A DNA stretch of 64,000 bases from positions 13,275 through 77,274 of the forward strand of contig CALWNQ010000045.1 of the NCBI GenBank assembly GCA_944382875.1, given 5' to 3'. This document shows, piece after piece, positions 12,692 to 34,105 of the stretch. Source of the stretch: an uncultured Clostridia bacterium. Lineage in GTDB: Bacteria; Bacillota; Clostridia; Oscillospirales; Ruminococcaceae. The notes under the pieces are model-generated. The model had not been told where the DNA came from. It did not search any database and saw only the letters and a list, made by a program, of their open reading frames with translations. The translations under genes and the position numbers were made by a program. Every line of letters begins with the position of its first letter. Position 1 is the stretch's first letter.

Positions 12692-12896
12692 AAAAGTGCC
12701 TCCTGTTCATGTGTCCGTGCACATCTCAATAGCACCAAAATACCACATCCAGGGCAATCTGTCAATAGAATTTTGCGGAAATTCTTGACAAACTTTGCTT
12801 TCAATGCTTTAATAAAGTTAAACGTGTGCCGGGGCACAACTTTTTTGAAAAAAGGACCCCGCACACCTTTTCCGGAACGAGAGGGAGGTGCTTGGT

Positions 12897-20496: not shown

Positions 20497-21309
20497 ATGA
20501 TTTATCAGAAATTGTATCCGGGCGGCAAGGCAAAGGCCGTCACCTTCAGCTATGACGACGGCGTGGAGCAGGATGCGGTGCTGGCGGAACTTTTCAACCG
20601 GTACGGTGCGCGGGCGACTTTTAACCTGAACTCGGGAATCGGGCCGGACCAGTCGTGGGACTGCCGCGGCGTAACGGTGCGGCGGCTTCCGCCGGAGGAT
20701 ATGCCCGGGATTTACGACGGGCACGAAATTGCCTGCCATTCCCGCACCCATCCGCATCTGGAGGAGCTGCCGGTGCGGGCGCTCTATGAGGAGCTTTTGG
20801 AGGACCGGATTGCGCTGGGAGAGCGGTTTCGCTGCAAGGTAACGGGGCTGGCGCTTCCTTACGGGAGCTGGAACGGCGCGGTGATGGAGGCGGTAGAGAA
20901 ACTCGGTTTTCTCTATTGCCGGACCACCGAATCGACCGGCCGGTTTTCGCTGCCGGAGGATTTTCTGCGCTGGAATCCCACCTGCCATCACAATGACCCG
21001 CAGCTCATGCTGCTGGCGGAAAGCTTCCGGGTTTGCGAGGAGGAGCTGCCGCTCTTTTATGTCTGGGGGCATTCCTACGAGTTCGCGGCCGACAAAAACT
21101 GGGGGCGGATGGAGGAGCTTCTGGACTTTTTGGCGGCGCAGCGCGGAATCTGGTACGCCACCAATCATGCGGTGGCGGCATATCTGCGGGCAGTGTCCCG
21201 GCTTGTGGCGGGCGAGGATTTCTTCTATAACCCGACAAACCAGGATCTCTGGGTGCGGTATGAGGGAAGCATCCTGAAAATCCCGGCGGGAGAATGGCTG
21301 GATGTATAA
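20497..21309 (+). CDS. Polysaccharide deacetylase (NodB homology) family protein
   Basis: About 270 aa, no signal peptide. VTFSYDDG, EIACHSRTHP and LALPYGSW motifs. Confidence 0.8.
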   Translation: MIYQKLYPGGKAKAVTFSYDDGVEQDAVLAELFNRYGARATFNLNSGIGPDQSWDCRGVTVRRLPPEDMPGIYDGHEIACHSRTHPHLEELPVRALYEELLEDRIALGERFRCKVTGLALPYGSWNGAVMEAVEKLGFLYCRTTESTGRFSLPEDFLRWNPTCHHNDPQLMLLAESFRVCEEELPLFYVWGHSYEFAADKNWGRMEELLDFLAAQRGIWYATNHAVAAYLRAVSRLVAGEDFFYNPTNQDLWVRYEGSILKIPAGEWLDV

Positions 21310-21343
21310 AAAAGCGGGGCCGGTGAAAACCGGTCCCGTTTTG
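21308..21343. terminator. Bidirectional intrinsic terminator
   Basis: A-tract, then GCGGGGCCGGT-GAAA-ACCGGTCCCGT, then TTTT. Sits between the convergent deacetylase gene and the last gene of the polyamine operon. Confidence 0.7.
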
Positions 21344-21347
21344 CTGT

Positions 21348-21746
21348 TCAGTCAAAGTTGTCGATTTCGCCGTCACCGTCCAGGTCGTGGTCGTGGGAGT
21401 AGAATTCCTTGCCGACAACCTGCCTGCGGCTGCGCGCCTTCTCAATGAGATCGGAGAGAAGGCGGTTGACCTCTTCCGGTTTTTTGATATTTTTGAGGAT
21501 GATCTGGCCCGACACATCCACTCGGGTGTGAAGGGTGACCGTCCCCGTTCCGCAGATCCGCTGCCCCAGAGTGCGGGTGAGCGAGAGGTCGACGATGCGG
21601 TAGAGCAGCGCCTCGTCGTGGCGGGTGGTCAAAAGCCCCACATCGGTGTAGAGGCGATCGCAATCCAGGCTGTACCGGGTAAAACTCCATGGGAACCAGA
21701 GGAAATGCTTGCGGTCCTTCCAGAGGATCGGATTTCTTTCGGGCAT
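21348..21746 (-). CDS. Bacterial PH-domain (bPH_2/YdbS-like) protein with an EF-hand-like acidic C-terminus
   Basis: About 132 aa. ILWKDRKHFL...YSLDCDRLYTDVGLLTTRHDEALLYRIVDLSLTRTLGQRICGTGTVTL fits the bPH_2 pattern. The C-terminus DLDGDGEIDNFD matches the DxDxDGxIxxxD calcium-loop pattern. ATG 21746 lies 2 nt after the upstream stop. Confidence 0.65.
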   Translation of the reverse strand: MPERNPILWKDRKHFLWFPWSFTRYSLDCDRLYTDVGLLTTRHDEALLYRIVDLSLTRTLGQRICGTGTVTLHTRVDVSGQIILKNIKKPEEVNRLLSDLIEKARSRRQVVGKEFYSHDHDLDGDGEIDNFD

Positions 21747-21748
21747 AT

Positions 21749-22009
21749 TCACAGGCGTTCTCCTTTCCGCCGGCTGTCGGCAACCGGCTCCATGTACTCT
21801 TTCTGATTGCAGTGCGGGCAGCGGATGATCTTGCCGCTCACCGCGTTGACTGAGAAAATCATCCGGAGCAGTTTTGGTTTGAAGGCGTATCCGCATTTCG
21901 GACAGACAAAATGCTGTCTTTTGTAAAAATACAGATACACGCCTGCCGCATAGAGGATCGCGGCGAGGACAAGGATCAAAGCGCCGGTTAGGACGGGATT
22001 TTCAAACAT
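21749..22009 (-). CDS. Small membrane-anchored zinc-ribbon protein
   Basis: 86 aa. One N-terminal TM helix (LTGALILVLAAILYAAGVYLYFY), then CPKC-x24-CPHC. Its start overlaps the nspC stop (TGATG). Confidence 0.55.
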   Translation of the reverse strand: MFENPVLTGALILVLAAILYAAGVYLYFYKRQHFVCPKCGYAFKPKLLRMIFSVNAVSGKIIRCPHCNQKEYMEPVADSRRKGERL

Positions 22010-23151
22010 CAGGAAAGCCTCCCCTTGAAATCCTCATAGCCGAACCGTTTGACCAGCCTGATTTCGCCGGATTCGGTTTTCAGGGCGATCGAGGGCAGCG
22101 GCATTCCGTTAAAGGTGTTGGTTTTGACCATGGTGTAGAGGGCCATGTCGCCGAAAACGACCAGATCACCGGGGTTCAGCGGCTTATCAAAGGAGTAATC
22201 CCCGATGATGTCGCCAGCCAGGCAGGTGGGGCCGCCAAAACGGTAGGTGTATGCCTTTTCGCCGGGCTGTCCGCTTTCGAGGACGGGCGGACGGTAGGGC
22301 ATTTCGAGGACGTCGGGCATGTGACAGGCGGCCGAAGTGTCCAGAATGGCAAGATTCATGCCGTTTTTAAAGGTTTCCAGCACGCTCGACACCAGATACC
22401 CGGCGTTCAGAACGACCGCTTCGCCCGGTTCGAGGTAGACTTCCACCTTCCAGCGCTCTTTTAGTCCTTTGACGATGCGGATGAGCTTTTCCCGGTCGTA
22501 GTCATCGCGGGTGATGTGGTGCCCGCCGCCCAGATTCAGCCATTTGAGGCCGGGGATGAACTCCCCGAATTTCTCTTCAAAGGCCGCGACGGTGGTTTCC
22601 AGATCGTCCGAATTCTGTTCGCAGAGGGTGTGGAAATGCAGTCCATCAAGCAGCGGCAGCAGCTCCGGCTCAAAATTCGCGCGGGTTGTCCCCAGCCGGG
22701 AGCCGGGCGCGCAGGGATCGTAGATCGCGTGGCCTTCCTGTGTCGAGCACTCGGGGTTTACCCGGAGCCCCACCTGTTTGCCGGCTTTATGTGCGCGATC
22801 GGCGTACAATCTGAGCTGGCGGCAGGAGTTGAAAACAAAGTGATCGGCGTACCCGAGAAGCTCCTGAAACTCCTCCTCCCGGTAGGCCGGGGAAAAGACA
22901 TGGGTTTCACCGCCGAATTCCTCGTGCCCGAGCCGCGCCTCAAAAAGGCCGCTGGCGGTCGAGCCGGCGAGATATTCCCGCAGAAGCGGGTAGACGGCGA
23001 ACATCGAGAACGCCTTTTGGGCGAGCAGAATTTTGCAGCCTGCTTTTTCCTGCACTTCTTTGAGGATTTCCAGATTCTGCCGCAGCTTTTTCTCATCAAT
23101 CAGGAAAAAGGGGGTGGGAATCCCGCCCCCCAGAAATTCGTTTCTGTCCAT
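22009..23151 (-). CDS. nspC: Carboxynorspermidine/carboxyspermidine decarboxylase
   Basis: 380 aa. PLP-fold motifs LLAQKAFS and LNLGGGHH, and the C-terminal barrel CLAGD, are typical of NspC/CANSDC. Confidence 0.85.
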   Translation of the reverse strand: MDRNEFLGGGIPTPFFLIDEKKLRQNLEILKEVQEKAGCKILLAQKAFSMFAVYPLLREYLAGSTASGLFEARLGHEEFGGETHVFSPAYREEEFQELLGYADHFVFNSCRQLRLYADRAHKAGKQVGLRVNPECSTQEGHAIYDPCAPGSRLGTTRANFEPELLPLLDGLHFHTLCEQNSDDLETTVAAFEEKFGEFIPGLKWLNLGGGHHITRDDYDREKLIRIVKGLKERWKVEVYLEPGEAVVLNAGYLVSSVLETFKNGMNLAILDTSAACHMPDVLEMPYRPPVLESGQPGEKAYTYRFGGPTCLAGDIIGDYSFDKPLNPGDLVVFGDMALYTMVKTNTFNGMPLPSIALKTESGEIRLVKRFGYEDFKGRLS

Positions 23152-24411
23152 TTAGTCCACCAGAACGGGGTTGTCGTTGATCTGCCACGGCAGGCCCCAT
23201 TTGTTGAGCGCTTCCATATACGGATCGGGATCGAACTCCTCGGCGGTGTAAACGCCGGGTTTGAGCCAGTAGCCTTTGAGCATCATCATGGCGCCGATCA
23301 TCGCGGGAACACCGGTGGTGTAGCTGATGGCCTGGGAGCCCACTTCCTTGTAGCACTCCTGATGGTCGCAGACGTTGTAAATGTAGGCGGTTTTCTCCTT
23401 GCCGTCTTTCACACCGGTGAAGATGCAGCCGATGTTGGTTTTGCCGACCGTGCGGGGGCCGAGGGAAGCGGGATCGGGCAGCAGCGCTTTGAGGAACTGG
23501 ATGGGAACAATCTGATGTCCCTCAAATTCGATGGGAGTGGTGGAAAGCATGCCCACATTTTCCAGACACTTCATGTGGGTGAGGTAGCTCTGGCCGAAGG
23601 TCATAAAGAAACGGATGCGTTCCACACCGGGGATGTTTTTGGCGAGCGATTCGATCTCCTCGTGGTGGAGGAGGTACATGTCCTTCTGACCGACCTGGTC
23701 AAAGTTATATTCCCGTTTGATGCTCATCGCGGGAATCTCCACCCAGTGGCCGTTTTCCCAGTAGGAACCGGGAGCGGAAACTTCGCGGAGGTTGATTTCG
23801 GGGTTGAAGTTGGTGGCGAAGGGGTAGCCGTGGTCGCCGCCGTTGCAGTCGAGGATGTCGATGGTGCGGATCTCGTCAAAGAGGTGTTTCTGGGCGTAGG
23901 CGCAGAACACCTGGGTAACGCCGGGATCGAAGCCGGTGCCGAGCAGGGCGGTCAGGCCGGCTTTCTCGAATTTTTCCTTGTAAGCCCACTGGTAGCTGTA
24001 ATCAAAGTAGGCGGAGAAGCCCTCTTCCTTGCAGCGTTTTTCATAAGCGGCTTTCCACTCCGGATCGTCAAGGTTTTCCGGCTCGTAGTTGGCGGTGTCG
24101 AGGTAGTTGACACCGCAGGCAAGGCAGGCGTCCATGATAACCAGATCCTGATAGGGCAGGGCGATGTTCATAACCAGATCGGGTTTTTCCTCTTTGATAA
24201 GGGCGCAGAGCTCGTCAAAATTGTCGGCGTTGACCTGCCGGGTGGTGATTTTGGTGGCAGTTTTGCCCTCCAGTTTCGCTTTGAGGTCATCGCACTTGGA
24301 TTTGGTGCGGGAAGCAATGCAGATTTCGGTAAAAACTTCGCTGTTCTGGCAGCATTTCTGGATGGCGACCGACGCAACGCCGCCGCAGCCAATGATTAAA
24401 ACTTTGGACAT
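23152..24411 (-). CDS. Carboxynorspermidine/carboxyspermidine dehydrogenase (saccharopine dehydrogenase family)
   Basis: 419 aa. N-terminal Rossmann fold VLIIGCGGVASV. Family-typical length, and its stop directly abuts the nspC start. Confidence 0.85.
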   Translation of the reverse strand: MSKVLIIGCGGVASVAIQKCCQNSEVFTEICIASRTKSKCDDLKAKLEGKTATKITTRQVNADNFDELCALIKEEKPDLVMNIALPYQDLVIMDACLACGVNYLDTANYEPENLDDPEWKAAYEKRCKEEGFSAYFDYSYQWAYKEKFEKAGLTALLGTGFDPGVTQVFCAYAQKHLFDEIRTIDILDCNGGDHGYPFATNFNPEINLREVSAPGSYWENGHWVEIPAMSIKREYNFDQVGQKDMYLLHHEEIESLAKNIPGVERIRFFMTFGQSYLTHMKCLENVGMLSTTPIEFEGHQIVPIQFLKALLPDPASLGPRTVGKTNIGCIFTGVKDGKEKTAYIYNVCDHQECYKEVGSQAISYTTGVPAMIGAMMMLKGYWLKPGVYTAEEFDPDPYMEALNKWGLPWQINDNPVLVD

Positions 24412-24430
24412 GGTAAAATCCTCCTGTTTT

Positions 24431-24751
24431 TTATTGTTCAGTAAAAATTTGATATTCCTGCTTGAGTTTCAGAATGGGCAGAGAGACCATTTCCGATAAC
24501 TGTTTGGAAATTTTATCAATAGCAGTTTGGAAAGAAGTGTGTGCAAGTTCCAGTTTCTCCCAGTTGGTGTACACATTCTGTACAACCGGAAGTATCTCCT
24601 CCTCAAAGCGGTAGCAAGCAATATCGTCTATGATTTTGCCGGGGAATTCTGCTGCGATGCCTGCAGCATATTTTTTCCAGTCCGGTAAAGAAAACTGTCC
24701 CGAAGGAAAGCATTGCCGGATATTGGAAAATGTGTCGACGACAGAAAGCAT
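24431..24751 (-). CDS. Hypothetical protein (AT-richer orphan ORF inside the polyamine operon)
   Basis: 106 aa. GGAGG RBS 9 nt upstream of the ATG. Hand-counted GC is about 45% against about 52-55% in adjacent genes. I see no recognisable catalytic motif. Confidence 0.5.
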   Translation of the reverse strand: MLSVVDTFSNIRQCFPSGQFSLPDWKKYAAGIAAEFPGKIIDDIACYRFEEEILPVVQNVYTNWEKLELAHTSFQTAIDKISKQLSEMVSLPILKLKQEYQIFTEQ

Positions 24752-24787
24752 GTCTTGATACCTCCGATGTCTGGAAACGAGTATGGT

Positions 24788-25639
24788 TTAAGATAACGCC
24801 AGCATCATTTCCCGCACGATCTTGCAGGCGACCGCTGTGGAAGCGCCGCTCTGATCGTAGTGGGGGCTTAATTCATTGACATCGCATCCCACGATGTTCG
24901 CTTTGGAGCAGACGAGAGTCACCGCTTCCCGCAGCGTGTTGAAATCCACCCCGCCGGGCTCCGGTGTGCCGGTTCCGGGAAAGACGGAAGGATCGAGAAC
25001 GTCAAGATCAAGTGTGAAGTAAACCGGTCTGCCGCCCAGCTCTGCAAGTTTCTCTGCCAGACCGTTCAGGTCAAATTTGTGGGTGTTGACATGGTCTTTT
25101 CCCCAACGGAACTCCTCCCGGTCGCCGGAACGGATGCCAAACTGGTGGATTTTGCCGTCGCCGATCAGCTCCCAGCAGCGCCGCAGCACGCAGGCGTGGG
25201 AAAGCTCGGCCCCCAGATACTCCTGCCGCAGGTCGGCGTGGGCGTCGAAGTGGATAATCTCAACATTGGAATATTTGGCCTGTGCCGCCCGGAAAGCGCC
25301 CAAGGTCACCAGATGCTCGCCGCCCAGCAAAAAGGGAAGCTTGCCGTCCGTTAAAATAGTTGCCGCGCGTTCCTCAATGTCGGCCAGCGCATCCTCCGGC
25401 TTGCCGAAAGAGAGCTCTAAATCGCCGCTGTCAAAGATTTTACAATCGAGCAGGTCCTTGTCCTGATACGGGCTGTAACTTTCGAGACCATAGGATTCCC
25501 GCCGGATGGCGGCGCTTCCGAACCGGGTGCCGGGGCGGTAGGATGTGGTCGAGTCAAACGGCGCGCCGTAGAGGACGATTTGCGCCTCCTCGTAATCGGC
25601 GTCGCAGCAGAGATAGGTTTCAACGTTCGGGTTCAACAT
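24788..25639 (-). CDS. speB: Agmatinase (ureohydrolase family)
   Basis: 283 aa. Mn-ligand motifs IIHFDAHADL, LGGEH and TLDLDVLDPS. Confidence 0.9.
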   Translation of the reverse strand: MLNPNVETYLCCDADYEEAQIVLYGAPFDSTTSYRPGTRFGSAAIRRESYGLESYSPYQDKDLLDCKIFDSGDLELSFGKPEDALADIEERAATILTDGKLPFLLGGEHLVTLGAFRAAQAKYSNVEIIHFDAHADLRQEYLGAELSHACVLRRCWELIGDGKIHQFGIRSGDREEFRWGKDHVNTHKFDLNGLAEKLAELGGRPVYFTLDLDVLDPSVFPGTGTPEPGGVDFNTLREAVTLVCSKANIVGCDVNELSPHYDQSGASTAVACKIVREMMLALS

Positions 25640-26480
25640 CTTTCAATAACTCCTCTACATAAGCGGGCACATAGAAAGCTCCTTTGTGCAGTGTCGTGGT
25701 GTAATACCGGCATTTGAGGCCGCGGGCGTTCCACCGTTTTTCGTCCAGGTCGCGGAGCGGGTGGTATTTTTTGGTGGAGAAGCCGAACAGCCAGTGGCCG
25801 GACGGATAGGTGGGGATGTGTGCCTGGAATACCCGGCTGAACGGGAAGGATTCCACAATTCGTTTGTGAGCCTTTTGCATGGCAAGGGCGTCCTCCTTAT
25901 AAAAGGGGCTTTCGTGCTGGTTGACCATGATGCCGTCCTCTTTGAGAGCCTTGAAGCAGTTGCCATAAAATTCACGGGTAAACAATCCTTCGCCGGGGCC
26001 GAACGGATCGGTCGAGTCGACGATGATGAGGTCGTAGCAGTCCTTGCACCAGCGGATAAATTTGAGCCCGTCTTCATAATAGATTTTCACGCGGGGATCG
26101 TCGAGCGAGCAAGCGGTCTGCGGCAGATATTCTTTGCAGACTTCCACCACCTGGGGATCGATTTCGACCATGTCGATCTGTTCGATGTCATCATACCGGC
26201 AGAGCTCCCGGATGACGCCGCCGTCGCCCGCTCCAATGACCAGCACCCGCTTGACATGGGGATGTACCGCCATCGGCACATGAACAATCATTTCGTGGTA
26301 GATAAATTCGTCCTTTTCAGTCAGCATCATATAGCCGTCCAGGACGAGAAAGCGCCCAAACTCCGGGGATTCAAAAATGTCGATCCGCTGGAAGTCGCTC
26401 TGGCCGCTGTAAAGCTGGCGGTCGACGCGGATGGAGAGCTTGACATTGGGGGTGTGCATTTCGGAGAACCAGAATTCCAT
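25620..26480 (-). CDS. speE: Polyamine aminopropyltransferase (spermidine synthase family)
   Basis: 286 aa. VLVIGAGDGGVIREL, DLIIVDSTDPFGPGEGLF and the N-terminal tetramerisation segment WFSE. Confidence 0.9.
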   Translation of the reverse strand: MEFWFSEMHTPNVKLSIRVDRQLYSGQSDFQRIDIFESPEFGRFLVLDGYMMLTEKDEFIYHEMIVHVPMAVHPHVKRVLVIGAGDGGVIRELCRYDDIEQIDMVEIDPQVVEVCKEYLPQTACSLDDPRVKIYYEDGLKFIRWCKDCYDLIIVDSTDPFGPGEGLFTREFYGNCFKALKEDGIMVNQHESPFYKEDALAMQKAHKRIVESFPFSRVFQAHIPTYPSGHWLFGFSTKKYHPLRDLDEKRWNARGLKCRYYTTTLHKGAFYVPAYVEELLKDVEPER

Positions 26481-26481
26481 A

Positions 26482-27933
26482 TTACGCTCCTTTCAGGACA
26501 TTCAAACGGGTGATGTCGGGATCTTCCGGCCCGGTCATCGAGCAGCCTTTTTCCTTGGCATAATGAATATAGTCCAAAATCTGCCGGGTAATCCGCTCGC
26601 CGGGGGTGAGGATCGGGATGCCGGGCGGGTAGCACATGACAAATTCGCTGCAAACCCGTCCCTCGGTTTGCTCAATGGGCAGCGATTCCTTGTCGGCGTA
26701 GAACGCCGCGTGGGGCGAAACAGCCACATCGGGGGCGATGTACTCCTGGCTCATCATCCCCATACTGTCCCGCTCATAACGGCGGCGGATCTCAGCCAGC
26801 GCGGCTACCAGACGCTCGACTTCCCGTTGGCGGTCGCCGATCGAGAGGTAGGCAAGGAAGTTTCCGAGGTCGCCGAATTCAATCTGGATGTCATATTCGT
26901 CCCGGAGAATGTCATACACTTCAATACCGGCTAGTCCCATATCGAGGGTGTGAACCGAGAGCTTGGTCCGGTCAAAATCATAGATGCTGTCGCCGTTTTT
27001 GAGTTCGTCCGCAAAGGCGTAGTAGCCGCCGATGGCGTTGATTTCCTCTCTTGCGTAGTCGGCAAGCTCCACCACCTTTGCAAAAGCTTCCTTGCCGCGG
27101 ATGGCAAGGTTCCGGCGGGAGATATCGAGACTGGAGAGCAAAAGGTAGGAGCCGCTCGTCGTCTGGGTGAGGTTGATAATCTGGCGGACATGTCCCTCGC
27201 TCATAGCGGGGCCAATGAGCAGGAAGGAGCTTTGAGTCAGGCTGCCGCCCGATTTGTGCATCGAAACGGCGGCCATGTCGGCGCCGGCCGCCATCGCCGA
27301 AACGGGAAGATTTTCTCCAAAATAAAAATGGGTGCCGTGCGCCTCGTCTGCAAGGCAGTACATCCCATTCTCGTGGGCAATTTTCACAATGGCACGCAGG
27401 TCGGAGCAGATGCCGTAATAGGTGGGGTTGTTGACCAGAACGGCTTTGGCGTCCGGGTTCTGGCGGATGGCCTCTTTCACGTCGGCAAGCTTCATCCCAA
27501 GCGGGATGCCGAGCCGTTCGTCGCAGTCGGGATTGACGTAAACCGGGATTGCGCCGCAGAGGACCAAAGCCCCCATGACGCTCCGGTGAACGTTGCGGGG
27601 GAGGATGATCTTTTCGCCGGCTTTGACGACCGACAAAACCATGCTCTGTACCGCCGAGGTGGTGCCGCCCACCATCAAAAAGGCATGGGCCGCGCCGAAT
27701 GCGTCGGCCGCCAGCTCTTCCGCTTCCCGGATGACCGAGATGGGGTGGCAGAGGTTGTCGAGCGGCTTCATCGAGTTGACGTCCATGCTGACGCACTTTT
27801 GGCCCAGCAGCTCGACAAGCTCCGGGTTGCCGCGGCCGCGTTTGTGGCCGGGGACGTCGAACGGGACGACCCGCATTTTCTGAAAGCGTTCCAGTGCCTC
27901 ATAAATCGGGGCGCGGTGCTGATTTTTTTCCAT
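26482..27933 (-). CDS. speA: Orn/Lys/Arg decarboxylase family enzyme, probable arginine decarboxylase
   Basis: 483 aa. PLP-lysine motif AAVSMHKSGGSLTQSS and fold-type-I major domain. The substrate is inferred only from the adjacent agmatinase. Confidence 0.75.
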   Translation of the reverse strand: MEKNQHRAPIYEALERFQKMRVVPFDVPGHKRGRGNPELVELLGQKCVSMDVNSMKPLDNLCHPISVIREAEELAADAFGAAHAFLMVGGTTSAVQSMVLSVVKAGEKIILPRNVHRSVMGALVLCGAIPVYVNPDCDERLGIPLGMKLADVKEAIRQNPDAKAVLVNNPTYYGICSDLRAIVKIAHENGMYCLADEAHGTHFYFGENLPVSAMAAGADMAAVSMHKSGGSLTQSSFLLIGPAMSEGHVRQIINLTQTTSGSYLLLSSLDISRRNLAIRGKEAFAKVVELADYAREEINAIGGYYAFADELKNGDSIYDFDRTKLSVHTLDMGLAGIEVYDILRDEYDIQIEFGDLGNFLAYLSIGDRQREVERLVAALAEIRRRYERDSMGMMSQEYIAPDVAVSPHAAFYADKESLPIEQTEGRVCSEFVMCYPPGIPILTPGERITRQILDYIHYAKEKGCSMTGPEDPDITRLNVLKGA

Positions 27934-28694
27934 TAGTAAATATTCCTCCCGCTGAAAATTTCGATCATCTCGCTGCGCAGGCTGTTCATAATCGAAAGCC
28001 GGGTGCTCGGCGGGAGCTCGTAGACGTCGGTTTTAAAGAGGTAGTTCTGGAGGTCGATCTCCTTAATCATCATATTGGTGTGGAAGAGGTTGGCGCTGTA
28101 TACGTTGATGTCCACCGCGTCGTAGCGCTGAAGCGTTTCATTGGCGATATAGTCCTGGATGGAGGTCATTTTGTGATCCATAAAAAGCTTTTTGCCGGTG
28201 ACGTCGCGGGTAAAGCCGCGGACGCGGTAATCAAGGGTGATGATGTCCGAATCAAAGGAGCCGATCAGGTAGTCGAGGGTGGAGAGCGGGGTGATCTCGC
28301 CGCAGGTTGCCACGTCGATGTCCACCCGGAAAGTGGCCAAACAGGTGTCGGGGTGATATTCGGGGTAAGTGTGGACTGTCACATGGCTCTTATCGAGGTG
28401 GGCGACCTGGGTTTCGCCGCCAACCGGGATCATCGAGCCTTCTGCGATCAGAATGGTGACCGAGGCTCCCTGCGGATCGTAGTCCTGGCGGGAAACATTC
28501 AAGACCTTTGCCCCGATCATGTTGGTGAGGGTGGTGAGGATGTTGGTCAGACGCTCCGAGTTATATTGTTCGTCGATATAGGCGATATAATCCTTCTGCT
28601 CCCGCGGTGTTTTGGCGTAGCAGACGTCATAGATATTAAAGCTCAGCGATTTTGTCAGGTTGTTGAACCCATATAAGGTCAGTTTCTGATCCAT
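27933..28694 (-). CDS. speD: S-adenosylmethionine decarboxylase proenzyme (long, E. coli-type)
   Basis: About 254 aa. KLTLYGFNNLTKSLSFNIYD N-terminus and self-cleavage/pyruvoyl site AHLDK-SHVTVHTYPE. Start set at ATG 28694 behind GGAGGGAG. The track extension to 28838 is Arg/Pro/Cys-rich leader sequence. Confidence 0.85.
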   Translation of the reverse strand: MDQKLTLYGFNNLTKSLSFNIYDVCYAKTPREQKDYIAYIDEQYNSERLTNILTTLTNMIGAKVLNVSRQDYDPQGASVTILIAEGSMIPVGGETQVAHLDKSHVTVHTYPEYHPDTCLATFRVDIDVATCGEITPLSTLDYLIGSFDSDIITLDYRVRGFTRDVTGKKLFMDHKMTSIQDYIANETLQRYDAVDINVYSANLFHTNMMIKEIDLQNYLFKTDVYELPPSTRLSIMNSLRSEMIEIFSGRNIY

Positions 28695-28935
28695 AAAGCT
28701 CCCTCCGGGACGATATTTTTGCAAAACAAAAAGCAGACGATTGCACGACAGCGAATCGCCTGCGTCAGTCAGACACCTGTATCCCGGCGGAAGAGCCCGT
28801 CCGCCGTTTTTGATCCTGTGGAATGATACAGATTGCATCTCAGAGCCTATATAGCAAATAATCTTACTTTTACTACTCTTATTGACCGTTTCACAAGTTG
28901 ATGTGCCGCATGCACACTGGTTATAAAGTAACCAA
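28695..28935 (-). promoter_or_regulatory. Long 5' leader of the polyamine operon
   Basis: About 235 nt separate the candidate promoter from speD. The leader is AT-rich and has no ORF. It contains the CGGCGG-N10-CCGCCG hairpin (28785-28806) and the terminator above. Confidence 0.45.
28722..28763 (-). terminator. Intrinsic terminator inside the speD leader (attenuator candidate)
   Basis: On the minus strand, GCAGGCGA-N15-TCGTCTGC (8 bp, one G-U) is followed by TTTTTGTTTTGC. It ends 28 nt before the speD start codon. Confidence 0.6.
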
Positions 28936-28966
28936 CTTATAAAATTTGAGTTTTTAACTCAATCAA
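28936..28966 (-). promoter_or_regulatory. Candidate sigma-A promoter of the polyamine operon, overlapped by a perfect palindrome
   Basis: On the minus strand: TTGATT (28966-28961), a 17-nt spacer, then TTTATA (or TATAAG with a 19-nt spacer). The palindrome TTGAGTT-TTT-AACTCAA (28946-28962) covers the -35/spacer region. Confidence 0.35.
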
Positions 28967-29138
28967 TGTCGGCAGTTGACCCGGCTGTCCGTCTGGCCTT
29001 GACCTGCAAAGGAAGCAGGTGGTCAAGAATATTTGCATGGAGAAGAAGCAACAGCATTCCATACAAACTTATGATAACAGAATGGGGGGGAATTGTCAAG
29101 ACATTTTTCGGCAAAATCCGGTTTGGTAAACCGAAAAG

Positions 29139-29207: not shown

Positions 29208-29249
29208 AAAGGTAAGTTGTGATTTGGAGAAATGGAAAGGAGTATCAAA

Positions 29250-30260
29250 ATGACATCACGAGAAAAGGTCTTGGAGATCTTTAACCGCAAAAGCACCAAC
29301 GGCGGTGCGATGTGGACGGGACATCCAAACGACGCTACGGTGCCGATCTACGCCGAAAAATGGGGGATCGAGCCCACACGGGAAGCGATCTTCCAGTTTT
29401 TAAACGACGACTGCCGGTGGTTTACGGCCGACAGCGGCTACCATCATCCGCAGGGGCTGCCCGCCATCGACCCGGCCTATGGGACTGAGCGGCACACCCT
29501 GAGTGCCGAGGGCTGCTTTGCCAATGCCGAAACGGTGGCCGACATCGAAAAATACCCCTGGCCAAACCCCGACTACTGCGATTTCACCGAAATCTACCGC
29601 CAGATTGAGCAGTTCCCGGATAAAATGGTCTTTACCGGGATGTGGAGCTGCTTCTTCCATCAGGTTGCCGATTTCTTCGGGATGGAAAACTATTTCATTA
29701 AGATGTATGAGTGCCCCGAGGTCGTGGAAGCGCTGACCGAGCGGATCGTCGACTACTATGTGGCGGCCAACGAGAAGTTCTTCTCCCAGCTTGGCGACCG
29801 GGCCGATGTCATGTTCTTCGGCAACGATTTCGGCACCCAGCTTGACCTTTTCATTTCCCCGGAGCTGTTCCGCAAGTTTGTCATGCCTTCCTTTAAGCGG
29901 CTGATCGCGGTGGGCAAAAAGTACAACAAAAAGATCATGCTCCATTCCTGCGGTTCCATCTACCGGATCATCCCCGACCTGATCGACGCCGGCGTGGATA
30001 TTCTCCATCCGATCCAGGCGCAGGCGGCGGGCATGAGCGCGCAGGATCTGAAACAGTATAAAAACGACCTCGCCTTTGTCGGCGGCATCGACGCCCAGAC
30101 CTTTTTTGTCAACGCGACTCCCCAGCAGATCAAGGACGAGGTACACCGCGTCCGGGACATCCTGGGCCCGAACATTGTCATTTCACCCAGCCACGAGGAA
30201 GTGCTGCCCAATGTACCGGCCGAGAACATCCTGGCCATGGCCGAAGCGGCGAGAGATTAA
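29250..30260 (+). CDS. Uroporphyrinogen decarboxylase (URO-D)/MT2 methyltransferase-like family protein, paralog 1
   Basis: About 336 aa. URO-D-fold pattern with an HxCG motif (MLHSCGSIYRIIPDLIDAGVDILHPIQ). Start at ATG 29250, 8 nt after AAAGGAG. Confidence 0.7.
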   Translation: MTSREKVLEIFNRKSTNGGAMWTGHPNDATVPIYAEKWGIEPTREAIFQFLNDDCRWFTADSGYHHPQGLPAIDPAYGTERHTLSAEGCFANAETVADIEKYPWPNPDYCDFTEIYRQIEQFPDKMVFTGMWSCFFHQVADFFGMENYFIKMYECPEVVEALTERIVDYYVAANEKFFSQLGDRADVMFFGNDFGTQLDLFISPELFRKFVMPSFKRLIAVGKKYNKKIMLHSCGSIYRIIPDLIDAGVDILHPIQAQAAGMSAQDLKQYKNDLAFVGGIDAQTFFVNATPQQIKDEVHRVRDILGPNIVISPSHEEVLPNVPAENILAMAEAARD

Positions 30261-30269
30261 GGAGGAGCT

Positions 30270-31316
30270 ATGTTTACACCTGATTACACCAATCTGGAAA
30301 AAAGTGCCCGCAACATCGAAGCGCCGCGGATGCCGCTTTATGAGCACATCATTTGCGACGAAATGATGGAGGCGGTGCTCGACAAAAAATTTGCCGACCT
30401 AATCCACGGCGATTTTGAGGACAAAAAGGAATATTTCCGCAACTACTGCGAGTTTTTTAAACGAATGGGCTACGACACCGTGTCTTTTGAGCAGTGCATT
30501 GGCCCGGTCATGCCGGGCAGCGGCGCGCTGGGCGGCCACAAAGAAGGCGTCATTCAAACACGCGAGGACTTTGACAAATACCCGTGGGCAGAAATCCCCG
30601 GCTGGTATTTTGAACGCTACGCGGAGGATTTCCGCGCTCTGGCGGCGGTCATCCCGGAGGGGATGAAGGCGATCGGCGGCCCCGGCAACGGCATTTTCGA
30701 GTGTGTTCAGGATGTGGTGGGCTATATGAACCTCTGCTACATCTCAGCTGACGATCCCGACCTCTATGCCGCTCTGTTTGCCAAAGTTGGCGAGACCAAC
30801 CTTGCCATCTGGGAACGCTTCCTGGAGGAGTTCGGCGACCTCTACTGCGTCTGCCGGTTCGGCGACGACCTGGGCTATAAGAGCAACACGCTGCTCCCCC
30901 ATACCGACATCATCGACAATATTATTCCGCAGTACCGCCGTATCATCGAGGCGGTCCACCGCCACGGCAAGCCGTTCCTGCTTCATTCCTGCGGCTGCAT
31001 CTTTGACATTATGGAAGAGCTGATTGCCGCCGGTATTGACGCCAAACACTCCAACGAGGACCAGATTGCGCGGTTCCCGGTCTGGGTGGAAAAATACGGC
31101 GACCGGATCGGCAACTTTGGAGGCATCGACACCGACGCGGTCTGCCGCCTTTCCGAGCCGGAAATGCGGGAGTACATCACCGACGTGGTGCGCCAGTGCC
31201 GCGGGCACGGCGGATTTGCCTTCGGTTCCGGAAACTCGATCCCGGACTATGTTCCGGTGGAGGGATATTTGAATATGAACCGCATTGCGCGGGAAATCAG
31301 GGGTGATTACAAATGA
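30270..31316 (+). CDS. URO-D/MT2 methyltransferase-like family protein, paralog 2
   Basis: 348 aa with the same fold pattern and an HxCG motif (LLHSCGCIFDIMEELIAAGIDAKHSNE). AAGGAGGAG RBS. Confidence 0.7.
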   Translation: MFTPDYTNLEKSARNIEAPRMPLYEHIICDEMMEAVLDKKFADLIHGDFEDKKEYFRNYCEFFKRMGYDTVSFEQCIGPVMPGSGALGGHKEGVIQTREDFDKYPWAEIPGWYFERYAEDFRALAAVIPEGMKAIGGPGNGIFECVQDVVGYMNLCYISADDPDLYAALFAKVGETNLAIWERFLEEFGDLYCVCRFGDDLGYKSNTLLPHTDIIDNIIPQYRRIIEAVHRHGKPFLLHSCGCIFDIMEELIAAGIDAKHSNEDQIARFPVWVEKYGDRIGNFGGIDTDAVCRLSEPEMREYITDVVRQCRGHGGFAFGSGNSIPDYVPVEGYLNMNRIAREIRGDYK

Positions 31317-34105
31317 TTCAGGTTGTACATGATTTTGACCGGTTCGCGTTTGTGGAAGAAGCGGCCGGCAGCCGTCCCACCGCCTGGCAGCGGCGGATCA
31401 TCGGCGAGCTGCGGTTTACCGAGGTCCTTTCCGAGGAAGCTTCGGGCGCTTATAATGGTCTCATCGAAGCGGCGCTGTCCGTTTTGAAAGAGGGGCTGAA
31501 AGCGGAGGGCGTCCTCTCCAATTCGGTCTGTGAAAAGGCGGAGCAGGCGCTTCTGCCGCTGGCGGAGGAAGCCAAGAGCTATGAGTACCTCTGCGCCGGC
31601 CACGCGCACATCGACATGAACTGGATGTGGGGTTTCCACGAAACCACCGGCACCACGGTGGATACTTTCCGGACGATGCTTCAGATTATGGAGGAGTATC
31701 CCGGCTTCAAATTCTCCCAGTCCCAGGCTTCGGTCTACCGGATTCTGGAACGGTTCGCGCCCGAAATGCTCGAGGAGGTCAAAGCCCGCGTCGCCGAGGG
31801 ACGCTGGGAGCTGACCGCTTCGGCCTGGGTGGAAACCGACAAGAATATGCCGAGCGGCGAGAGCCTTTCCCGCCATATCCTCTATGCAAAACAGTATTTG
31901 TCCAAACTCTTCTCGATCAGCCCCGACAGTCTGGAGGTTGACTTTGATCCCGATACCTTTGGCCACAGCCAGAATATCCCGGAAATTGCTTCGCGCGGCG
32001 GCGTGAAGTACTACTATCATTGCCGCGGCCGCGTTGGGGAGCAGGTGCTCAACCGCTGGCGTTCGCCCTCCGGAGCCGAGCTCATCATCTACACCGAGCC
32101 GTTCTGGTACAACGGCGAAATCGACACTACTGCCGCCGAATTTGCCCCCGAGCTTGCCCGTCGGACCGGTTCCCGCACCCTGCTCAAGGTTTACGGCGTC
32201 GGCGACCACGGCGGCGGACCAACCCGCCGCGACCTCGATTTCCTGATCGAGATGAACAGCTGGCCGGTCTACCCGAAGTTCACCTTCTCCACTTTCCACG
32301 AGTATTTCCACACCGTCGAAGCGCGGCGGGAAACGCTGCCGGTCATCGAGGGCGAGATCAACTTCCTCTGCGACGGCTGCTACACCACCCAAACCCGGAT
32401 CAAAGCCGGAAACCGCCGTTCCGAGCGTATTCTGCAGGACGCCGAGCTGTTTGAAGCGGCTTCTTCGGTCTGCGCCGGCGGCAAAGCCCGTCCGGAGATT
32501 TTTGCGGAAGCCTGGGAAAAGGTGCTCTTCAACCACTTCCATGACATCATCCCCGGTTCCGGCGTGACCGAAACCCGTGAATACGCCTCCGCCCTCTATC
32601 AGGAGGTTGCCGCGGCAGCCGACAGCCGCCGCAAACAGGCGTTCTATAACATCACCAGCCAGATGGACACCAGCGCCCTCATCGAGCCGGAAGACGTTTC
32701 CTTCTCCCGTGCCGAAGGCGGCGGAGCGGGGTTTGGTGAGTGCGGATATTCCGCCGGTAAAAACCGCATCTTCCACCTCTTCAACCCCTCTCCCTGGGAT
32801 CGTACCGAAAACGCCGAGTTCGTCGTCTGGGATTACGAGGGCCGGGAAGACCGGATGGCGGTGCGGGATACCGCCGGAAACTGGCTGGATACCCAGAAGA
32901 TCAAGAGCGGCGATTACTGGGGCCACCATTACGCCATTCTGGCTGCAGAAGTGACTGTTCCCGCAGCCGGCAGCGCCGCCTATATTGTGGGGGAACGTCC
33001 CGTTTCGTGCGGATGCAGCTTTTTCAACGACATGCGGGTGCAGGCTCCCGAAACCTTTGTCCTCGAAAATAAAAAAATCCGCGCCGAATTCTCTCCGGCA
33101 ACGGCAGGGCTTGTGTCGCTGGTGCGCAAGGACACCGGCCGCGAGCTGATCCCCACCGGAAAGGAAGCGCGCTTTGAGCTTGCTACCGAAGCGGTTTGGA
33201 AAGAAGTTACCGGCTGGGACGGCGGGATGTCCGCCTGGTTCACCGGGCGGCAGAAAGCGGTCACCCCGCTTCAGAACGTTGAGCTGCGGCAGCTGCCCGG
33301 CGGCGCGGTGCGCGGACGTCTGGAGATGAAAGCAAACTTTGGCAAGGCCTCTACCTTCCGGGCCGAGATCAGCCTTGACCAGAACAGCGAAAACCTCCGG
33401 TTCGCGGTGAGCTGCGACTGGCGCGAGTTCGGCAGCGATGCCGACGGCATCCCCTGCCTGCAGTTCACTCTGCCGGAATCCCTCGACGACGGCAGCTTCC
33501 TGTTTGATGTGCCGTTTGGCTTTGTCCGCCGCGAAGGCCGGGAGATGGACCTCCCCGCCAACCGCTTTGTTATGGCGGGCGACAGCGCCGACGCGCTGAT
33601 CCTCAGCGCCCAGACCAAGTACGGCTACCGCTGCGGCAGCGGCCGGATGGCGGTCACCCTGATCCGCGGCGCCTACAATCCCGATCCCACCCCCGAAATC
33701 GGCACCCACGAGATTGCCATTTCGGTGCTGGCTCCGGCTGGCGGCAAGGCAGACAGCGCTTATTCCCGTCTGGTACAGGACAGCGAGCATCCGCTCTTTG
33801 CCATTTCGGGCCGCGCCCACAAGGGCACCCTTCCGGTTTCGGGCAGCTTCCTCCATCTGGAAGAAGGCAGCGCGCTGCTCTCCGCCTGCAAGGTTTCGGA
33901 AGACGGCAAAGCTCTGATTCTCCGCCTGTATGAAGCGGACGGCAAGGATTGCGAAGCTGCGGTAACCTTCTGCTGCGCGCCTAAGTCGGCAGTGGCGGCA
34001 GATCAGCTGGAGCGTCCTGCTGACGGCTGCGTCAAACTGGACGGAAACCGTGTTTCAGTCAAAATGGCGCCGTACAGCGTTGCGATCCTGCGGGTAGAAC
34101 TATAA
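31313..34105 (+). CDS. GH38 alpha-mannosidase (cytoplasmic type)
   Basis: 930 aa, no signal peptide. GHAHIDMNWMWG catalytic-domain signature, DTFGHS, YGVGDHGGGPT. The ATGA overlap with the upstream gene indicates translational coupling. Confidence 0.85.
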   Translation: MIQVVHDFDRFAFVEEAAGSRPTAWQRRIIGELRFTEVLSEEASGAYNGLIEAALSVLKEGLKAEGVLSNSVCEKAEQALLPLAEEAKSYEYLCAGHAHIDMNWMWGFHETTGTTVDTFRTMLQIMEEYPGFKFSQSQASVYRILERFAPEMLEEVKARVAEGRWELTASAWVETDKNMPSGESLSRHILYAKQYLSKLFSISPDSLEVDFDPDTFGHSQNIPEIASRGGVKYYYHCRGRVGEQVLNRWRSPSGAELIIYTEPFWYNGEIDTTAAEFAPELARRTGSRTLLKVYGVGDHGGGPTRRDLDFLIEMNSWPVYPKFTFSTFHEYFHTVEARRETLPVIEGEINFLCDGCYTTQTRIKAGNRRSERILQDAELFEAASSVCAGGKARPEIFAEAWEKVLFNHFHDIIPGSGVTETREYASALYQEVAAAADSRRKQAFYNITSQMDTSALIEPEDVSFSRAEGGGAGFGECGYSAGKNRIFHLFNPSPWDRTENAEFVVWDYEGREDRMAVRDTAGNWLDTQKIKSGDYWGHHYAILAAEVTVPAAGSAAYIVGERPVSCGCSFFNDMRVQAPETFVLENKKIRAEFSPATAGLVSLVRKDTGRELIPTGKEARFELATEAVWKEVTGWDGGMSAWFTGRQKAVTPLQNVELRQLPGGAVRGRLEMKANFGKASTFRAEISLDQNSENLRFAVSCDWREFGSDADGIPCLQFTLPESLDDGSFLFDVPFGFVRREGREMDLPANRFVMAGDSADALILSAQTKYGYRCGSGRMAVTLIRGAYNPDPTPEIGTHEIAISVLAPAGGKADSAYSRLVQDSEHPLFAISGRAHKGTLPVSGSFLHLEEGSALLSACKVSEDGKALILRLYEADGKDCEAAVTFCCAPKSAVAADQLERPADGCVKLDGNRVSVKMAPYSVAILRVEL

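Follow-up and report, generated by a model that had tools for sequence, protein, structure and literature searches.

Positions 21348-28694 of the window (the whole stretch of 64,000 nt that was analysed) probably correspond to one transcription unit, orthologous to the hybrid polyamine cluster of C. leptum, in which agmatine would be converted to spermidine and spermidine to spermine under the control of a leader RNA. Judged from protein identities, the host is a gut Oscillospirales bacterium with Candidatus Merdivicinus as its closest relative: SpeE shares 97% identity with a protein of Ca. Merdivicinus sp. and the dehydrogenase 95-96% with Ca. Merdivicinus loci. The operon is a further example of the published C. 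leptum-type hybrid system, a confirmation rather than a discovery. The novelty implied by an earlier sequence-only reading of this DNA is thus not supported: co-occurrence of the two routes was noted in 2011, 2021 and 2023 and function was shown in 2025.

The nine minus-strand ORFs lie at the coordinates which that reading had given (Table 1), and its list of junctions was reproduced when these were recomputed. The speD and decarboxylase genes overlap by 1 nt (TAATG), the decarboxylase gene and speE are separated by 1 nt (TAATATG), and speE and speB overlap by 20 nt. The largest gap of the operon, 36 nt, lies between speB and orf106; it is followed by a 19-nt gap between orf106 and the dehydrogenase gene, whose stop codon adjoins the nspC start with no gap (TAAATG). 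The nspC and Zn-ribbon genes overlap (TGATG), as do the Zn-ribbon and PH-domain genes (GTGA), given a GTG start at 21752 for the latter. This start is the one called in independent assemblies, where the PH-domain protein also has 134 aa. The reading had presented a nine-gene polyamine operon: nine ORFs do stand in a row, but six of them are conserved polyamine genes and the other three are not polyamine genes.

The full nine-ORF layout was also found in two independent metagenome assemblies. We further compared 80 genome loci, which are the best matches to the dehydrogenase of the window. The order speD-decarboxylase-speE-(speB)-dehydrogenase-decarboxylase (hybrid arrangement) recurs in 33 of them and in C. 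leptum, and 24 show a speD-less variant; speB-less variants of the cluster are seen among relatives as well. Since the order recurs in this way and the whole layout in two assemblies, the arrangement is not due to chance.

Table 1. Features of the polyamine operon region, in the order of transcription (window coordinates)
Feature	Positions	Strand	Basis
Sigma-70-type promoter, TTGACA-17 nt-TATCAT with TG extension	29071..29099	-	11/12 consensus matches
Conserved structured leader RNA, ~225 nt, ldcC motif included	28837..29060	-	alignment of 31 loci
ldcC RNA motif (Rfam RF02440, SpF59 sRNA)	28969..29025	-	69.3 bits, gathering score 37.2
Intrinsic terminator in leader (attenuator), GCAGGCGAUUCGCUGUCGUGCAAUCGUCUGC then UUUUUGUUUUG	28722..28763	-	fold vs shuffles
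speD, pyruvoyl S-adenosylmethionine decarboxylase, E. coli type, 253 aa	27933..28694	-	TIGR03331
Short ('ancestral') AAT-fold basic amino-acid decarboxylase, 483 aa	26482..27933	-	OKR_DC_1/PF01276, 224 bits
speE, aminopropyltransferase, 286 aa	25620..26480	-	NF002010, 395 bits
speB, ureohydrolase, 283 aa	24788..25639	-	TIGR01230 agmatinase, 284 bits
orf106, in-frame internal-deletion remnant of a 278-aa DUF2268-like Zn-protease gene	24431..24751	-	comparison with closest relative
Carboxyaminopropylagmatine (CASDH-family) dehydrogenase, 419 aa	23152..24411	-	saccharopine-dehydrogenase domains
Carboxyaminopropylagmatine/carboxy(nor)spermidine decarboxylase, 380 aa	22009..23151	-	nspC TIGR01047, 471 bits
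Membrane-anchored Zn-ribbon protein, 86 aa	21749..22009	-	sub-threshold zinc-ribbon matches only
Bacterial PH-domain protein (bPH_2), 134 aa	21348..21752	-	PF03703, 37.7 bits
Intrinsic terminator closing the transcription unit	21308..21338	-	hairpin 21338-21315, then U-run 21313-21308

The C. leptum cluster has counterparts of all six conserved genes, ordered and oriented as in the window (speD, AAT-fold ADC, APT, speB, CAPADH and CAPADC), the proteins being 87, 74, 77, 71, 73 and 65% identical to those of the window, respectively, and it shares an ldcC-type leader with a terminator upstream of speD. The window comes from a different, Ca. Merdivicinus-like genus, known here from sequence alone. 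It also differs from C. leptum by a 19-aa insertion in the dehydrogenase (residues ~115-133), by orf106, a decayed remnant separating speB from the dehydrogenase gene, by two extra co-oriented genes after the decarboxylase gene and by tighter intergenic gaps. The accessions of the C. leptum proteins (EDO61987, 61989, 61991 and 61992) follow the gene order of the window as well, and C. leptum enzymes have been characterised. Li et al. (J Biol Chem 2025, PMC11999265) showed that CASDH/CASDC turn agmatine into N1-aminopropylagmatine and make no spermine, and that the aminopropyltransferase is a specific spermine synthase which aminopropylates agmatine too.

In the pathway proposed for the window, the AAT-fold decarboxylase would convert arginine to agmatine. 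The CASDH-family dehydrogenase would then form carboxyaminopropylagmatine from agmatine and aspartate semialdehyde, the nspC-family decarboxylase would convert it to N1-aminopropylagmatine, and SpeB would strip urea from the latter to give spermidine. With decarboxylated AdoMet (dcAdoMet) provided by SpeD, SpeE would mainly convert spermidine to spermine, with aminopropylation of agmatine as a possible additional activity. The two aminopropyl chemistries would act in series, with intermediates in common; such interaction of the branches via shared intermediates is not yet demonstrated according to Li et al. (PMC11999265). The sequence-only reading had suggested action in series or on different acceptors, with agmatine used either by SpeE before SpeB or by the dehydrogenase/decarboxylase pair, and this agrees with both the C. 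leptum enzymes and the signature residues of the dehydrogenase and SpeB described below. Its other suggestion, that the dehydrogenase/decarboxylase pair acts on spermidine, runs against the lack of spermine formation by the C. leptum pair.

The signature of agmatine-type enzymes (CAPADH) consists of N104, F113 and E228 in Synechocystis numbering, residues which are replaced in CASDH and CANSDH. In the alignment with 8h4z (481 bits), the dehydrogenase of the window carries this signature as N108, F136 and E251; E110 and H250 are likewise conserved. It is 79% identical over 419 aa to S. pneumoniae SPD_0812 (PDB 4RL6), biochemically shown to be a CAPADH, and the 19-aa insertion is common to both. 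The pneumococcal polyamine operon also has a short AAT-fold decarboxylase, SP_0916, which is a proven ADC. We take this operon to lack speD and to carry agmatine deiminase genes in place of speB, a layout resembling the speD-less and speB-less variants found among relatives of the window. For the nspC-family decarboxylase, the best match among solved structures is a C. leptum enzyme (9eaf).

SpeB is probably an N1-aminopropylagmatine ureohydrolase and/or an agmatinase. Its NCBIfam label is agmatinase, and it scores 176 bits against the T. volcanium aminopropylagmatinase 3PZL versus 120 bits against the E. coli agmatinase. E53 ('GLESY') and R138 ('DAHADLR') match 3PZL, whereas the E. coli agmatinase has Ala and Tyr at these positions. 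By motif position rather than by alignment, both were equated with E60 and R151 of Synechocystis Sll0228, residues conserved only in APAUH. The CAPA pathway described for Synechocystis sp. PCC 6803 (Xi et al., Sci Adv 2023, PMC10599626) shares with the window the N/F/E dehydrogenase, an nspC-family decarboxylase and a ureohydrolase with aminopropylagmatinase-like residues; its acceptor is agmatine, as predicted for the window. The cyanobacterial pathway is without SpeD and SpeE and ends at spermidine, whereas the window adds a dcAdoMet module in the operon. In Thermus thermophilus and Thermococcus kodakarensis, a SpeE-type enzyme aminopropylates agmatine and a SpeB-like ureohydrolase then yields spermidine; these systems use dcAdoMet only, whereas in the window N1-aminopropylagmatine would be expected mostly from the aspartate-semialdehyde branch.

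Profile scores agreed with the enzyme families which the reading had assigned to the AdoMet decarboxylase, the PLP decarboxylase, the aminopropyltransferase, the agmatinase and the dehydrogenase/decarboxylase pair. As it had also noted, SpeD is of the long E. coli type (391 bits against TIGR03331, cut-off 255.8) and not of the short Bacillus form (TIGR03330, score under cut-off), and its processing site HLDK-SH is intact (K102/S103, Ser codon 28386-28388). A ribosome-binding site, GGAGGG, precedes speD at 28701-28706.

SpeE probably acts as a spermine synthase, with agmatine as a further substrate. The C. leptum aminopropyltransferase to which it is 77% identical, EDO61989, is a demonstrated spermine synthase, which supports the idea of the reading that the end product is longer than spermidine. 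SpeE contains D86-G-G88 together with E106, a pattern that spermine synthases must have; it is necessary and not sufficient, the Thermotoga maritima spermidine synthase having the same one. A rather unlikely alternative is plain redundancy, where the dcAdoMet branch (SpeD/SpeE, via agmatine or putrescine) and the aspartate-semialdehyde branch would both end at spermidine and nothing longer would be made. Besides the non-exclusive motif pattern, this is how Xi et al. (2023, PMC10599626) understand the joint presence of the routes in Firmicutes, namely as 'both pathways for spermidine biosynthesis', and every aminopropyltransferase tested by Li et al. gives some spermidine (PMC11999265). The enzyme of Sporomusa ovata, whose genome encodes both routes, gave spermidine and no spermine (PMC11999265), so that product specificity cannot be read from co-occurrence of the routes. 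However, specific spermine synthase activity is known for the nearest characterised orthologue, whose gene has the corresponding place in the C. leptum operon, and for three further aminopropyltransferases from hybrid genomes (PMC11999265). Moreover, SpeE proteins from speD-containing operons form a tight group, C. leptum included, with a mean identity of 77-80%.

From its layout, we infer that the region is transcribed as a single operon: it has one promoter, no internal terminator, a 3' terminator, conserved co-linearity and tight junctions, from the 20-nt overlap to the 36-nt gap. A 9-kb scan found just one near-consensus promoter in the operon region, promoter-like sites overall being no commoner than in shuffled sequence, and no terminator-like site in the intergenic gaps of the operon. 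The terminator closing the unit has a dG of -15.4 kcal/mol (z = -3.8, none of 200 shuffles folding as well). Separate promoters for a speD-speB half and a dehydrogenase/decarboxylase half, adjacent by chance, would be an improbable arrangement. What lies between speB and the dehydrogenase gene varies, several relatives holding 0.3-1.7 kb of unrelated genes there, and the AT-richer gene remnant found there in the window could conceal a promoter. Nevertheless, the genes inserted in relatives are all on the same strand, no promoter-like site was found in 24431-24790, and the gaps around orf106 are just 36 and 19 nt. In addition, the conserved leader and terminator precede the first gene only, and the six-gene order is kept across the 33 genome loci and C. 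leptum.

The AAT-fold decarboxylase, which opens the proposed pathway, is probably an arginine decarboxylase; the C. leptum protein to which it is 74% identical (EDO61987-type) is called ADC by Li et al. For a related short decarboxylase, the LDC encoded next to speD and speE in L. ferrooxidans, gene context had pointed to the wrong substrate; the substrate of the enzyme in the window cannot be read from the sequence. That the enzyme is instead an ODC or LDC, with a pathway running from ornithine or lysine via putrescine or cadaverine through classical carboxyspermidine and spermidine-synthase routes, is very improbable: short AAT-fold ODC, LDC and bifunctional enzymes do exist, one such LDC adjoining speD and speE genes, and the protein gives only weak, sub-threshold matches to the NCBIfam LDC, ODC and ADC models, but the ureohydrolase of the operon would be useless without a guanidino substrate, the dehydrogenase bears the agmatine-type signature, the closely related C. 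leptum protein is taken as an ADC, and the characterised short decarboxylases of Firmicutes polyamine clusters (B. subtilis, C. difficile, S. pneumoniae, S. ruminantium) are ADCs.

Expression of the operon would start from one strong promoter and would probably be throttled by the leader, which comprises the ldcC motif and a 3' extension. The promoter is the best site of the 9-kb scan and lies ~375 nt upstream of the speD ATG. The ldcC motif match is full-length (E = 2e-10) and lies 275 nt upstream of the speD start codon. No Rfam family other than RF02440 matched the leader, SAM-family models included. Alignment of 31 loci showed invariant blocks reaching far past the 54-nt Rfam model, and hairpins at the same positions but with different sequences across loci; one hairpin present in almost all other copies is missing from that of the window. 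Because indels are not multiples of three, the conserved element is not a leader peptide. The leader terminator has a dG of -23.3 kcal/mol (z = -4.2, none of 200 shuffles folding as well), and all 47 loci compared have an equivalent one after the ldcC motif and before the first gene, the ldcC core occurring once per locus, upstream of the first gene only. The sequence-only reading of the operon did not include the promoter, the conserved leader or the leader terminator.

The leader would control this terminator, just 5' of speD, in response to a signal that is most likely a polyamine. RF02440 is named after the pneumococcal sRNA SpF59; Weinberg et al. (2017) described the ldcC motif, which lies upstream of polyamine decarboxylase and potA genes, as an orphan candidate for cis-regulation, and no ligand is reported for it in the literature. 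Among 120 metagenome loci, the first gene after the 3' leader block is a decarboxylase gene in 63, speD in 22 and a gene for a PotA-like polyamine-uptake ATPase in 16. A SAM-I variant is known as a riboswitch for spermidine: it works as an OFF switch in leaders before 'ldcC', speE and speB that end in an intrinsic terminator (Salvail et al., Cell Rep 2023, PMC10853860); its fold is unrelated to the leader of the window, which matches RF02440 and no SAM-family model. As a tentative proposal, which we hold to be possible rather than likely, the ldcC motif may be only the 5' third of a conserved ~225-245-nt leader with several hairpins, constituting a second class of polyamine-sensing riboswitch with a structure unrelated to the first. 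Bound to spermine, spermidine or a pathway intermediate (N1-aminopropylagmatine, for example), this leader would favour the terminator and so turn off, throughout gut Clostridia, both uptake operons of the potABCD type and synthesis operons, whether hybrid or without speD.

Polyamines of the colon are supplied largely by gut bacteria, and the microbial source of spermine has been unclear. With this locus, an Oscillospirales lineage of the chicken and human gut joins the carriers of C. leptum-type hybrid operons. The more useful lead is regulation, both chemistries standing behind one conserved leader and terminator; the presence of the same leader before polyamine-uptake genes makes it a concrete candidate for polyamine sensing in such bacteria.

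Concerning the three non-polyamine genes, orf106 and the 278-aa gene product of the closest relative share 65% identity over residues 1-86 of both, and the last ~17 residues of orf106 match the C-terminus of that product, the HEIGH region being gone. Homologues of orf106 are mostly ~280 aa long and match in the N-terminal part only, and its GC content is 0.42, versus 0.52-0.59 in the neighbouring genes. The Zn-ribbon and PH-domain genes are not conserved operon members but adjacent genes that became fused to the transcription unit: the Zn-ribbon gene was absent from all 84 related loci compared, and homologues of the PH-domain gene occur in unrelated contexts, one of them adjoining a convergent polysaccharide deacetylase gene, as in the window.

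Nine minus-strand ORFs occupy 21348-28694, with junctions that, recomputed on the window sequence, are as tightly packed as the sequence-only reading had listed them (table below). Profile searches gave an E. coli-type SpeD (TIGR03331, 391 bits; the Bacillus-type model scored below its cut-off), as had been claimed, with the pyruvoyl processing site likewise found unbroken (LDK/SH, K102/S103). It is followed by a short AAT-fold Orn/Lys/Arg decarboxylase, SpeE (NF002010, 395 bits), SpeB (agmatinase model TIGR01230, 284 bits), a dehydrogenase of the saccharopine-dehydrogenase family and, as the last core gene, an nspC-family decarboxylase (nspC model, 471 bits). The structure search returned no solved structure for SpeD. 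For this protein the shorter start, at 28694, is favoured, because it has a GGAGGG ribosome-binding site, because homologues begin at the same place and because transcription of the longer ORF would need to pass the upstream terminator.

The co-occurrence of a dcAdoMet branch (SpeD and SpeE, the aminopropyltransferase or APT) and an aspartate-semialdehyde branch (the dehydrogenase, CAPADH, and the nspC-family decarboxylase, CAPADC) is confirmed. The question raised from it, namely what both chemistries do together, is already answered in the literature. According to Li et al. 2025 (PMC11999265), Hanfrey 2011 had noted the co-occurrence; Li 2021 drew it (Fig. 1C), Xi 2023 (PMC10599626) noted it again, and Li 2025 (PMC11999265) demonstrated function. 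In Clostridium leptum, the APT was shown to act as a spermine synthase of high specificity, and the pathway proposed runs arginine -> agmatine -> carboxyaminopropylagmatine -> N1-aminopropylagmatine -> spermidine -> spermine (PMC11999265). The C. leptum accessions given there are near-consecutive (EDO61987 ADC, 61989 APT, 61991 CAPADH, 61992 CAPADC). We recovered this locus by way of the sequence of PDB 9eaf, the C. leptum decarboxylase structure, and it has the window's six core genes in identical order, at identities of 87% (SpeD), 74% (ADC), 77% (APT), 71% (SpeB), 73% (dehydrogenase) and 65% (decarboxylase). The suggestion that the two chemistries act in series towards a longer polyamine is supported in substance, matching both the C. 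leptum scheme (Li et al. 2025) and the signatures of the window enzymes, yet published studies have got ahead of it. The alternative also put forward, a carboxyspermine route in which the dehydrogenase/decarboxylase pair acts on spermidine, is unlikely: the C. leptum pair yielded no spermine, and carboxyspermine-forming activity belongs to putrescine-type alphaproteobacterial enzymes (PMC11999265).

At the level of residues, the window enzymes agree with the C. leptum-type scheme. N104, F113 and E228 are specific to agmatine-type dehydrogenases (Xi et al. 2023, PMC10599626), and their counterparts N108, F136 and E251 are all there in the window dehydrogenase, as mapped through an alignment with 8h4z, a chain whose numbering fits Synechocystis CAPADH. 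The dehydrogenase also shares 79% identity with S. pneumoniae SPD_0812 (4RL6), biochemically confirmed as a CAPADH (Xi et al. 2023, PMC10599626). A 19-aa insertion, DDPEWKAAYEKRCKEEGFS, at residues ~115-133 (24015-24071) is shared with 4RL6, whereas it is missing in 4ina, 8deb (annotated carboxyspermidine dehydrogenase) and 8h4z; the C. leptum enzyme is 20 aa shorter than that of the window. For SpeB, the match to the T. volcanium aminopropylagmatinase 3PZL outscored that to E. coli agmatinase. Residues E53 and R138 of SpeB are shared by 3PZL, in contrast to Ala and Tyr in the E. coli enzyme, and appear to fit the E60/R151 signature, with the mapping made by motif position alone. From context and from its C. 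leptum counterpart (74% identical) we infer that the first decarboxylase is probably an ADC, in a short AAT-fold family where context can mislead on substrate.

Whether the window SpeE would make spermine is the main uncertainty, given S. ovata, a counter-example from which it follows that not every hybrid genome, i.e. one with both branches, makes spermine. SpeE carries D86-G-G88 and E106, a pattern present in all bacterial spermine synthases of Li et al. 2024; since it is also found in the T. maritima spermidine synthase, it is necessary but not sufficient.

A single transcription unit is favoured by the arrangement of the locus. The gaps are tiny or replaced by overlaps, only one near-consensus promoter was found, with no terminator-like site in the operon's intergenic gaps, a terminator follows the last gene, the regulatory leader stands at the 5′ end only and co-linearity is conserved. 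Promoter-like sites overall were no more frequent than in shuffles.

Signals, junctions and insert contents of the operon and of related loci
Feature	Position	Strand	Detail
Near-consensus promoter TTGACA-17-TATCAT	29099-29071	(-)	~375 nt upstream of speD
ldcC/SpF59 motif RF02440	29025-28969	(-)	69 bits
Intrinsic leader terminator	28763-28722	(-)	strong; dG -23.3 kcal/mol, z = -4.2
speD/decarboxylase junction		(-)	TAATG
decarboxylase/speE junction		(-)	TAATATG
speE/speB junction		(-)	20-nt overlap
speB/orf106 junction		(-)	36-nt gap
orf106/dehydrogenase junction		(-)	19-nt gap
dehydrogenase/nspC junction		(-)	TAAATG
nspC/Zn-ribbon junction		(-)	TGATG
Zn-ribbon/PH-domain junction		(-)	GTGA
Terminator after last gene	21338-21308	(-)	good; behind PH-domain gene
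Insert region of L081 (closest relative)	11723-13105		NUDIX and 278-aa gene; counterpart of window 24431-24751
Slot content of related loci L001, L002			NUDIX
Slot content of related locus L003			GNAT acetyltransferase and flavodoxin
Slot content of related locus L046			amino-acid-kinase-family (aspartokinase-like) gene

Of the nine-gene polyamine operon originally described, all nine ORFs are present and only six are core polyamine genes, the others being a remnant (orf106) and Zn-ribbon and PH-domain genes without conservation. Between speB and the dehydrogenase gene, where the window has orf106 (24431-24751), the closest relative carries a NUDIX gene and a 278-aa gene for a DUF2268-like predicted Zn-protease. 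orf106 aligns with residues 1-86 (65% identity) and the last ~17 residues of the 278-aa protein and lacks its HEIGH-containing middle part; among 1.8 billion representative proteins searched, its homologues are mostly ~280 aa long and match only in the N-terminal part. We therefore read orf106 as a remnant of the DUF2268-like gene, internally deleted in frame, and discarded the idea of a new polyamine gene. Its GC content is 0.42 against ~0.55-0.58 for the flanking genes. The NUDIX gene of the closest relative is entirely lost from the window. The position is a variable slot between the dcAdoMet and aspartate-semialdehyde halves (L001, L002, L003, L032, L038, L046, L081), occupied by unrelated genes on the operon's strand, unknown ORFs among them. 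The aspartokinase-like gene of L046 could supply the aspartate-semialdehyde precursor.

The membrane-anchored Zn-ribbon and PH-domain genes (21348-22009) are translationally coupled to nspC and share its terminator, none being found ahead of them. They were absent from 84/84 related loci examined, the closest relative has no co-oriented gene after nspC, and PH-domain homologues stand in unrelated contexts, one of them, like that of the window, beside a convergent polysaccharide deacetylase. They were thus rejected as conserved members; they look like neighbours fused onto the transcription unit and probably hitch-hike on its transcript.

Chicken- and human-gut genomes of Candidatus Merdivicinus are the closest relatives (dehydrogenase 95-96%, SpeE 97% identical). 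The full window layout, with its ORFs of 106, 86 and 134 aa, was found again in two independent metagenome assemblies and is therefore not an assembly artefact. We sorted the 80 genome loci retained for matching the window dehydrogenase best: 33 have the order speD-decarboxylase-speE-(speB)-dehydrogenase-decarboxylase, 27 of them with speB; 24/80 are without speD but have a speE-like gene (e.g. Faecalibacterium prausnitzii, Blautia faecis, Acidaminococcus), and 23/80 are truncated at a contig end or unclassified for another reason. The speD-less variant is common (L027, L037, L041-L044, L046, L049, L050, L053, L058, L061, L065, L067, L071-L073, L079, L080); its SpeE-like protein is ~66% identical to the window SpeE, with only two consistently differing columns, E190G and H229Y. 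Variants lacking speB (L043, L047, L054, L059, L066, L068), mostly labelled Lachnospiraceae, have a ~370-400-aa ORF immediately after the nspC gene. The only such ORF tested, L043 12517-13725, is an agmatine-deiminase-type gene (PAD_porph), a layout similar to that of S. pneumoniae.

The most interesting loose end of the locus is its extended ldcC-type leader; promoter, leader and leader terminator had all been missed in the sequence-only reading. Weinberg et al. 2017 describe the ldcC motif as an orphan and as a candidate cis-regulatory element for polyamine genes. Each of 47 loci has a single copy of its core, on the coding strand and 227-534 nt ahead of whichever gene comes first (speD or decarboxylase); none stands in front of the dehydrogenase gene. 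In 47/47 a terminator separates the motif from the first gene, mostly at a distance of 20-100 nt from the start codon and with a non-conserved stem sequence. Alignment A1, of the leaders of 31 loci, showed a conserved leader of ~225-245 nt, far longer than the 54-nt Rfam model, with the invariant blocks AATTTTATAAGTTGG, ACTTGTGAAAC, GGTCAATAAGAGTAGTAAAAGT and TTGCTATATAGACTCT. Between blocks, hairpin sequences vary and pairing is kept (e.g. GGCAAC/GTTGCC, GGCGG/CCGCC, GGTAAC/GTTACC). RNAalifold on the MAFFT alignment recovered the conserved helices only, since variable hairpins were misregistered; these were examined sequence by sequence, a procedure biased towards pairing. In the window, the GC-rich variable hairpin (GGCAAC...GUUGCC type) which almost every other aligned locus has after its ldcC motif is missing at 28930-28937, between ...CUGCCGA and CAUUGAUUGAG, and the remaining blocks are intact.

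What the leader might be was considered against known elements. A leader peptide in the 5′ region was rejected because the indels between conserved blocks measure 1, 2, 4 or 6 nt, do not go in steps of three and lie within hairpin loops. A T-box or SAM-I-variant spermidine riboswitch was rejected as well: only RF02440 matches in Rfam at E <= 5, with no other family; the known spermidine riboswitch, a SAM-I variant, is a different RNA (Salvail et al. 2023, PMC10853860). A regulon scan of metagenome contigs, by exact match to one 3′ leader block, gave 120 loci, 98 of which have the ldcC core <=260 nt upstream of this block. The first downstream gene is the decarboxylase (63/120), speD (22/120), a PotA-like spermidine/putrescine ABC ATPase (16/120) or a ~290-aa secreted protein with a SEWSCG motif (4/120); endopeptidase C39A figures among the motif-associated genes of Weinberg et al. 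2017. The orphan motif is just part of a conserved multi-hairpin leader that precedes synthesis and PotA-like uptake operons. Because it stands before both kinds of gene, always with a terminator at its end, it would look like a polyamine-responsive OFF switch, a candidate riboswitch; the literature searched reports no ligand for the motif.

Divergently upstream of the operon, the plus strand (29232-34105) carries a tandem pair of URO-D-like genes (uroporphyrinogen-decarboxylase family) together with a gene for a GH38 alpha-mannosidase; the closest relative has the latter and one URO-D-like gene in the corresponding place.
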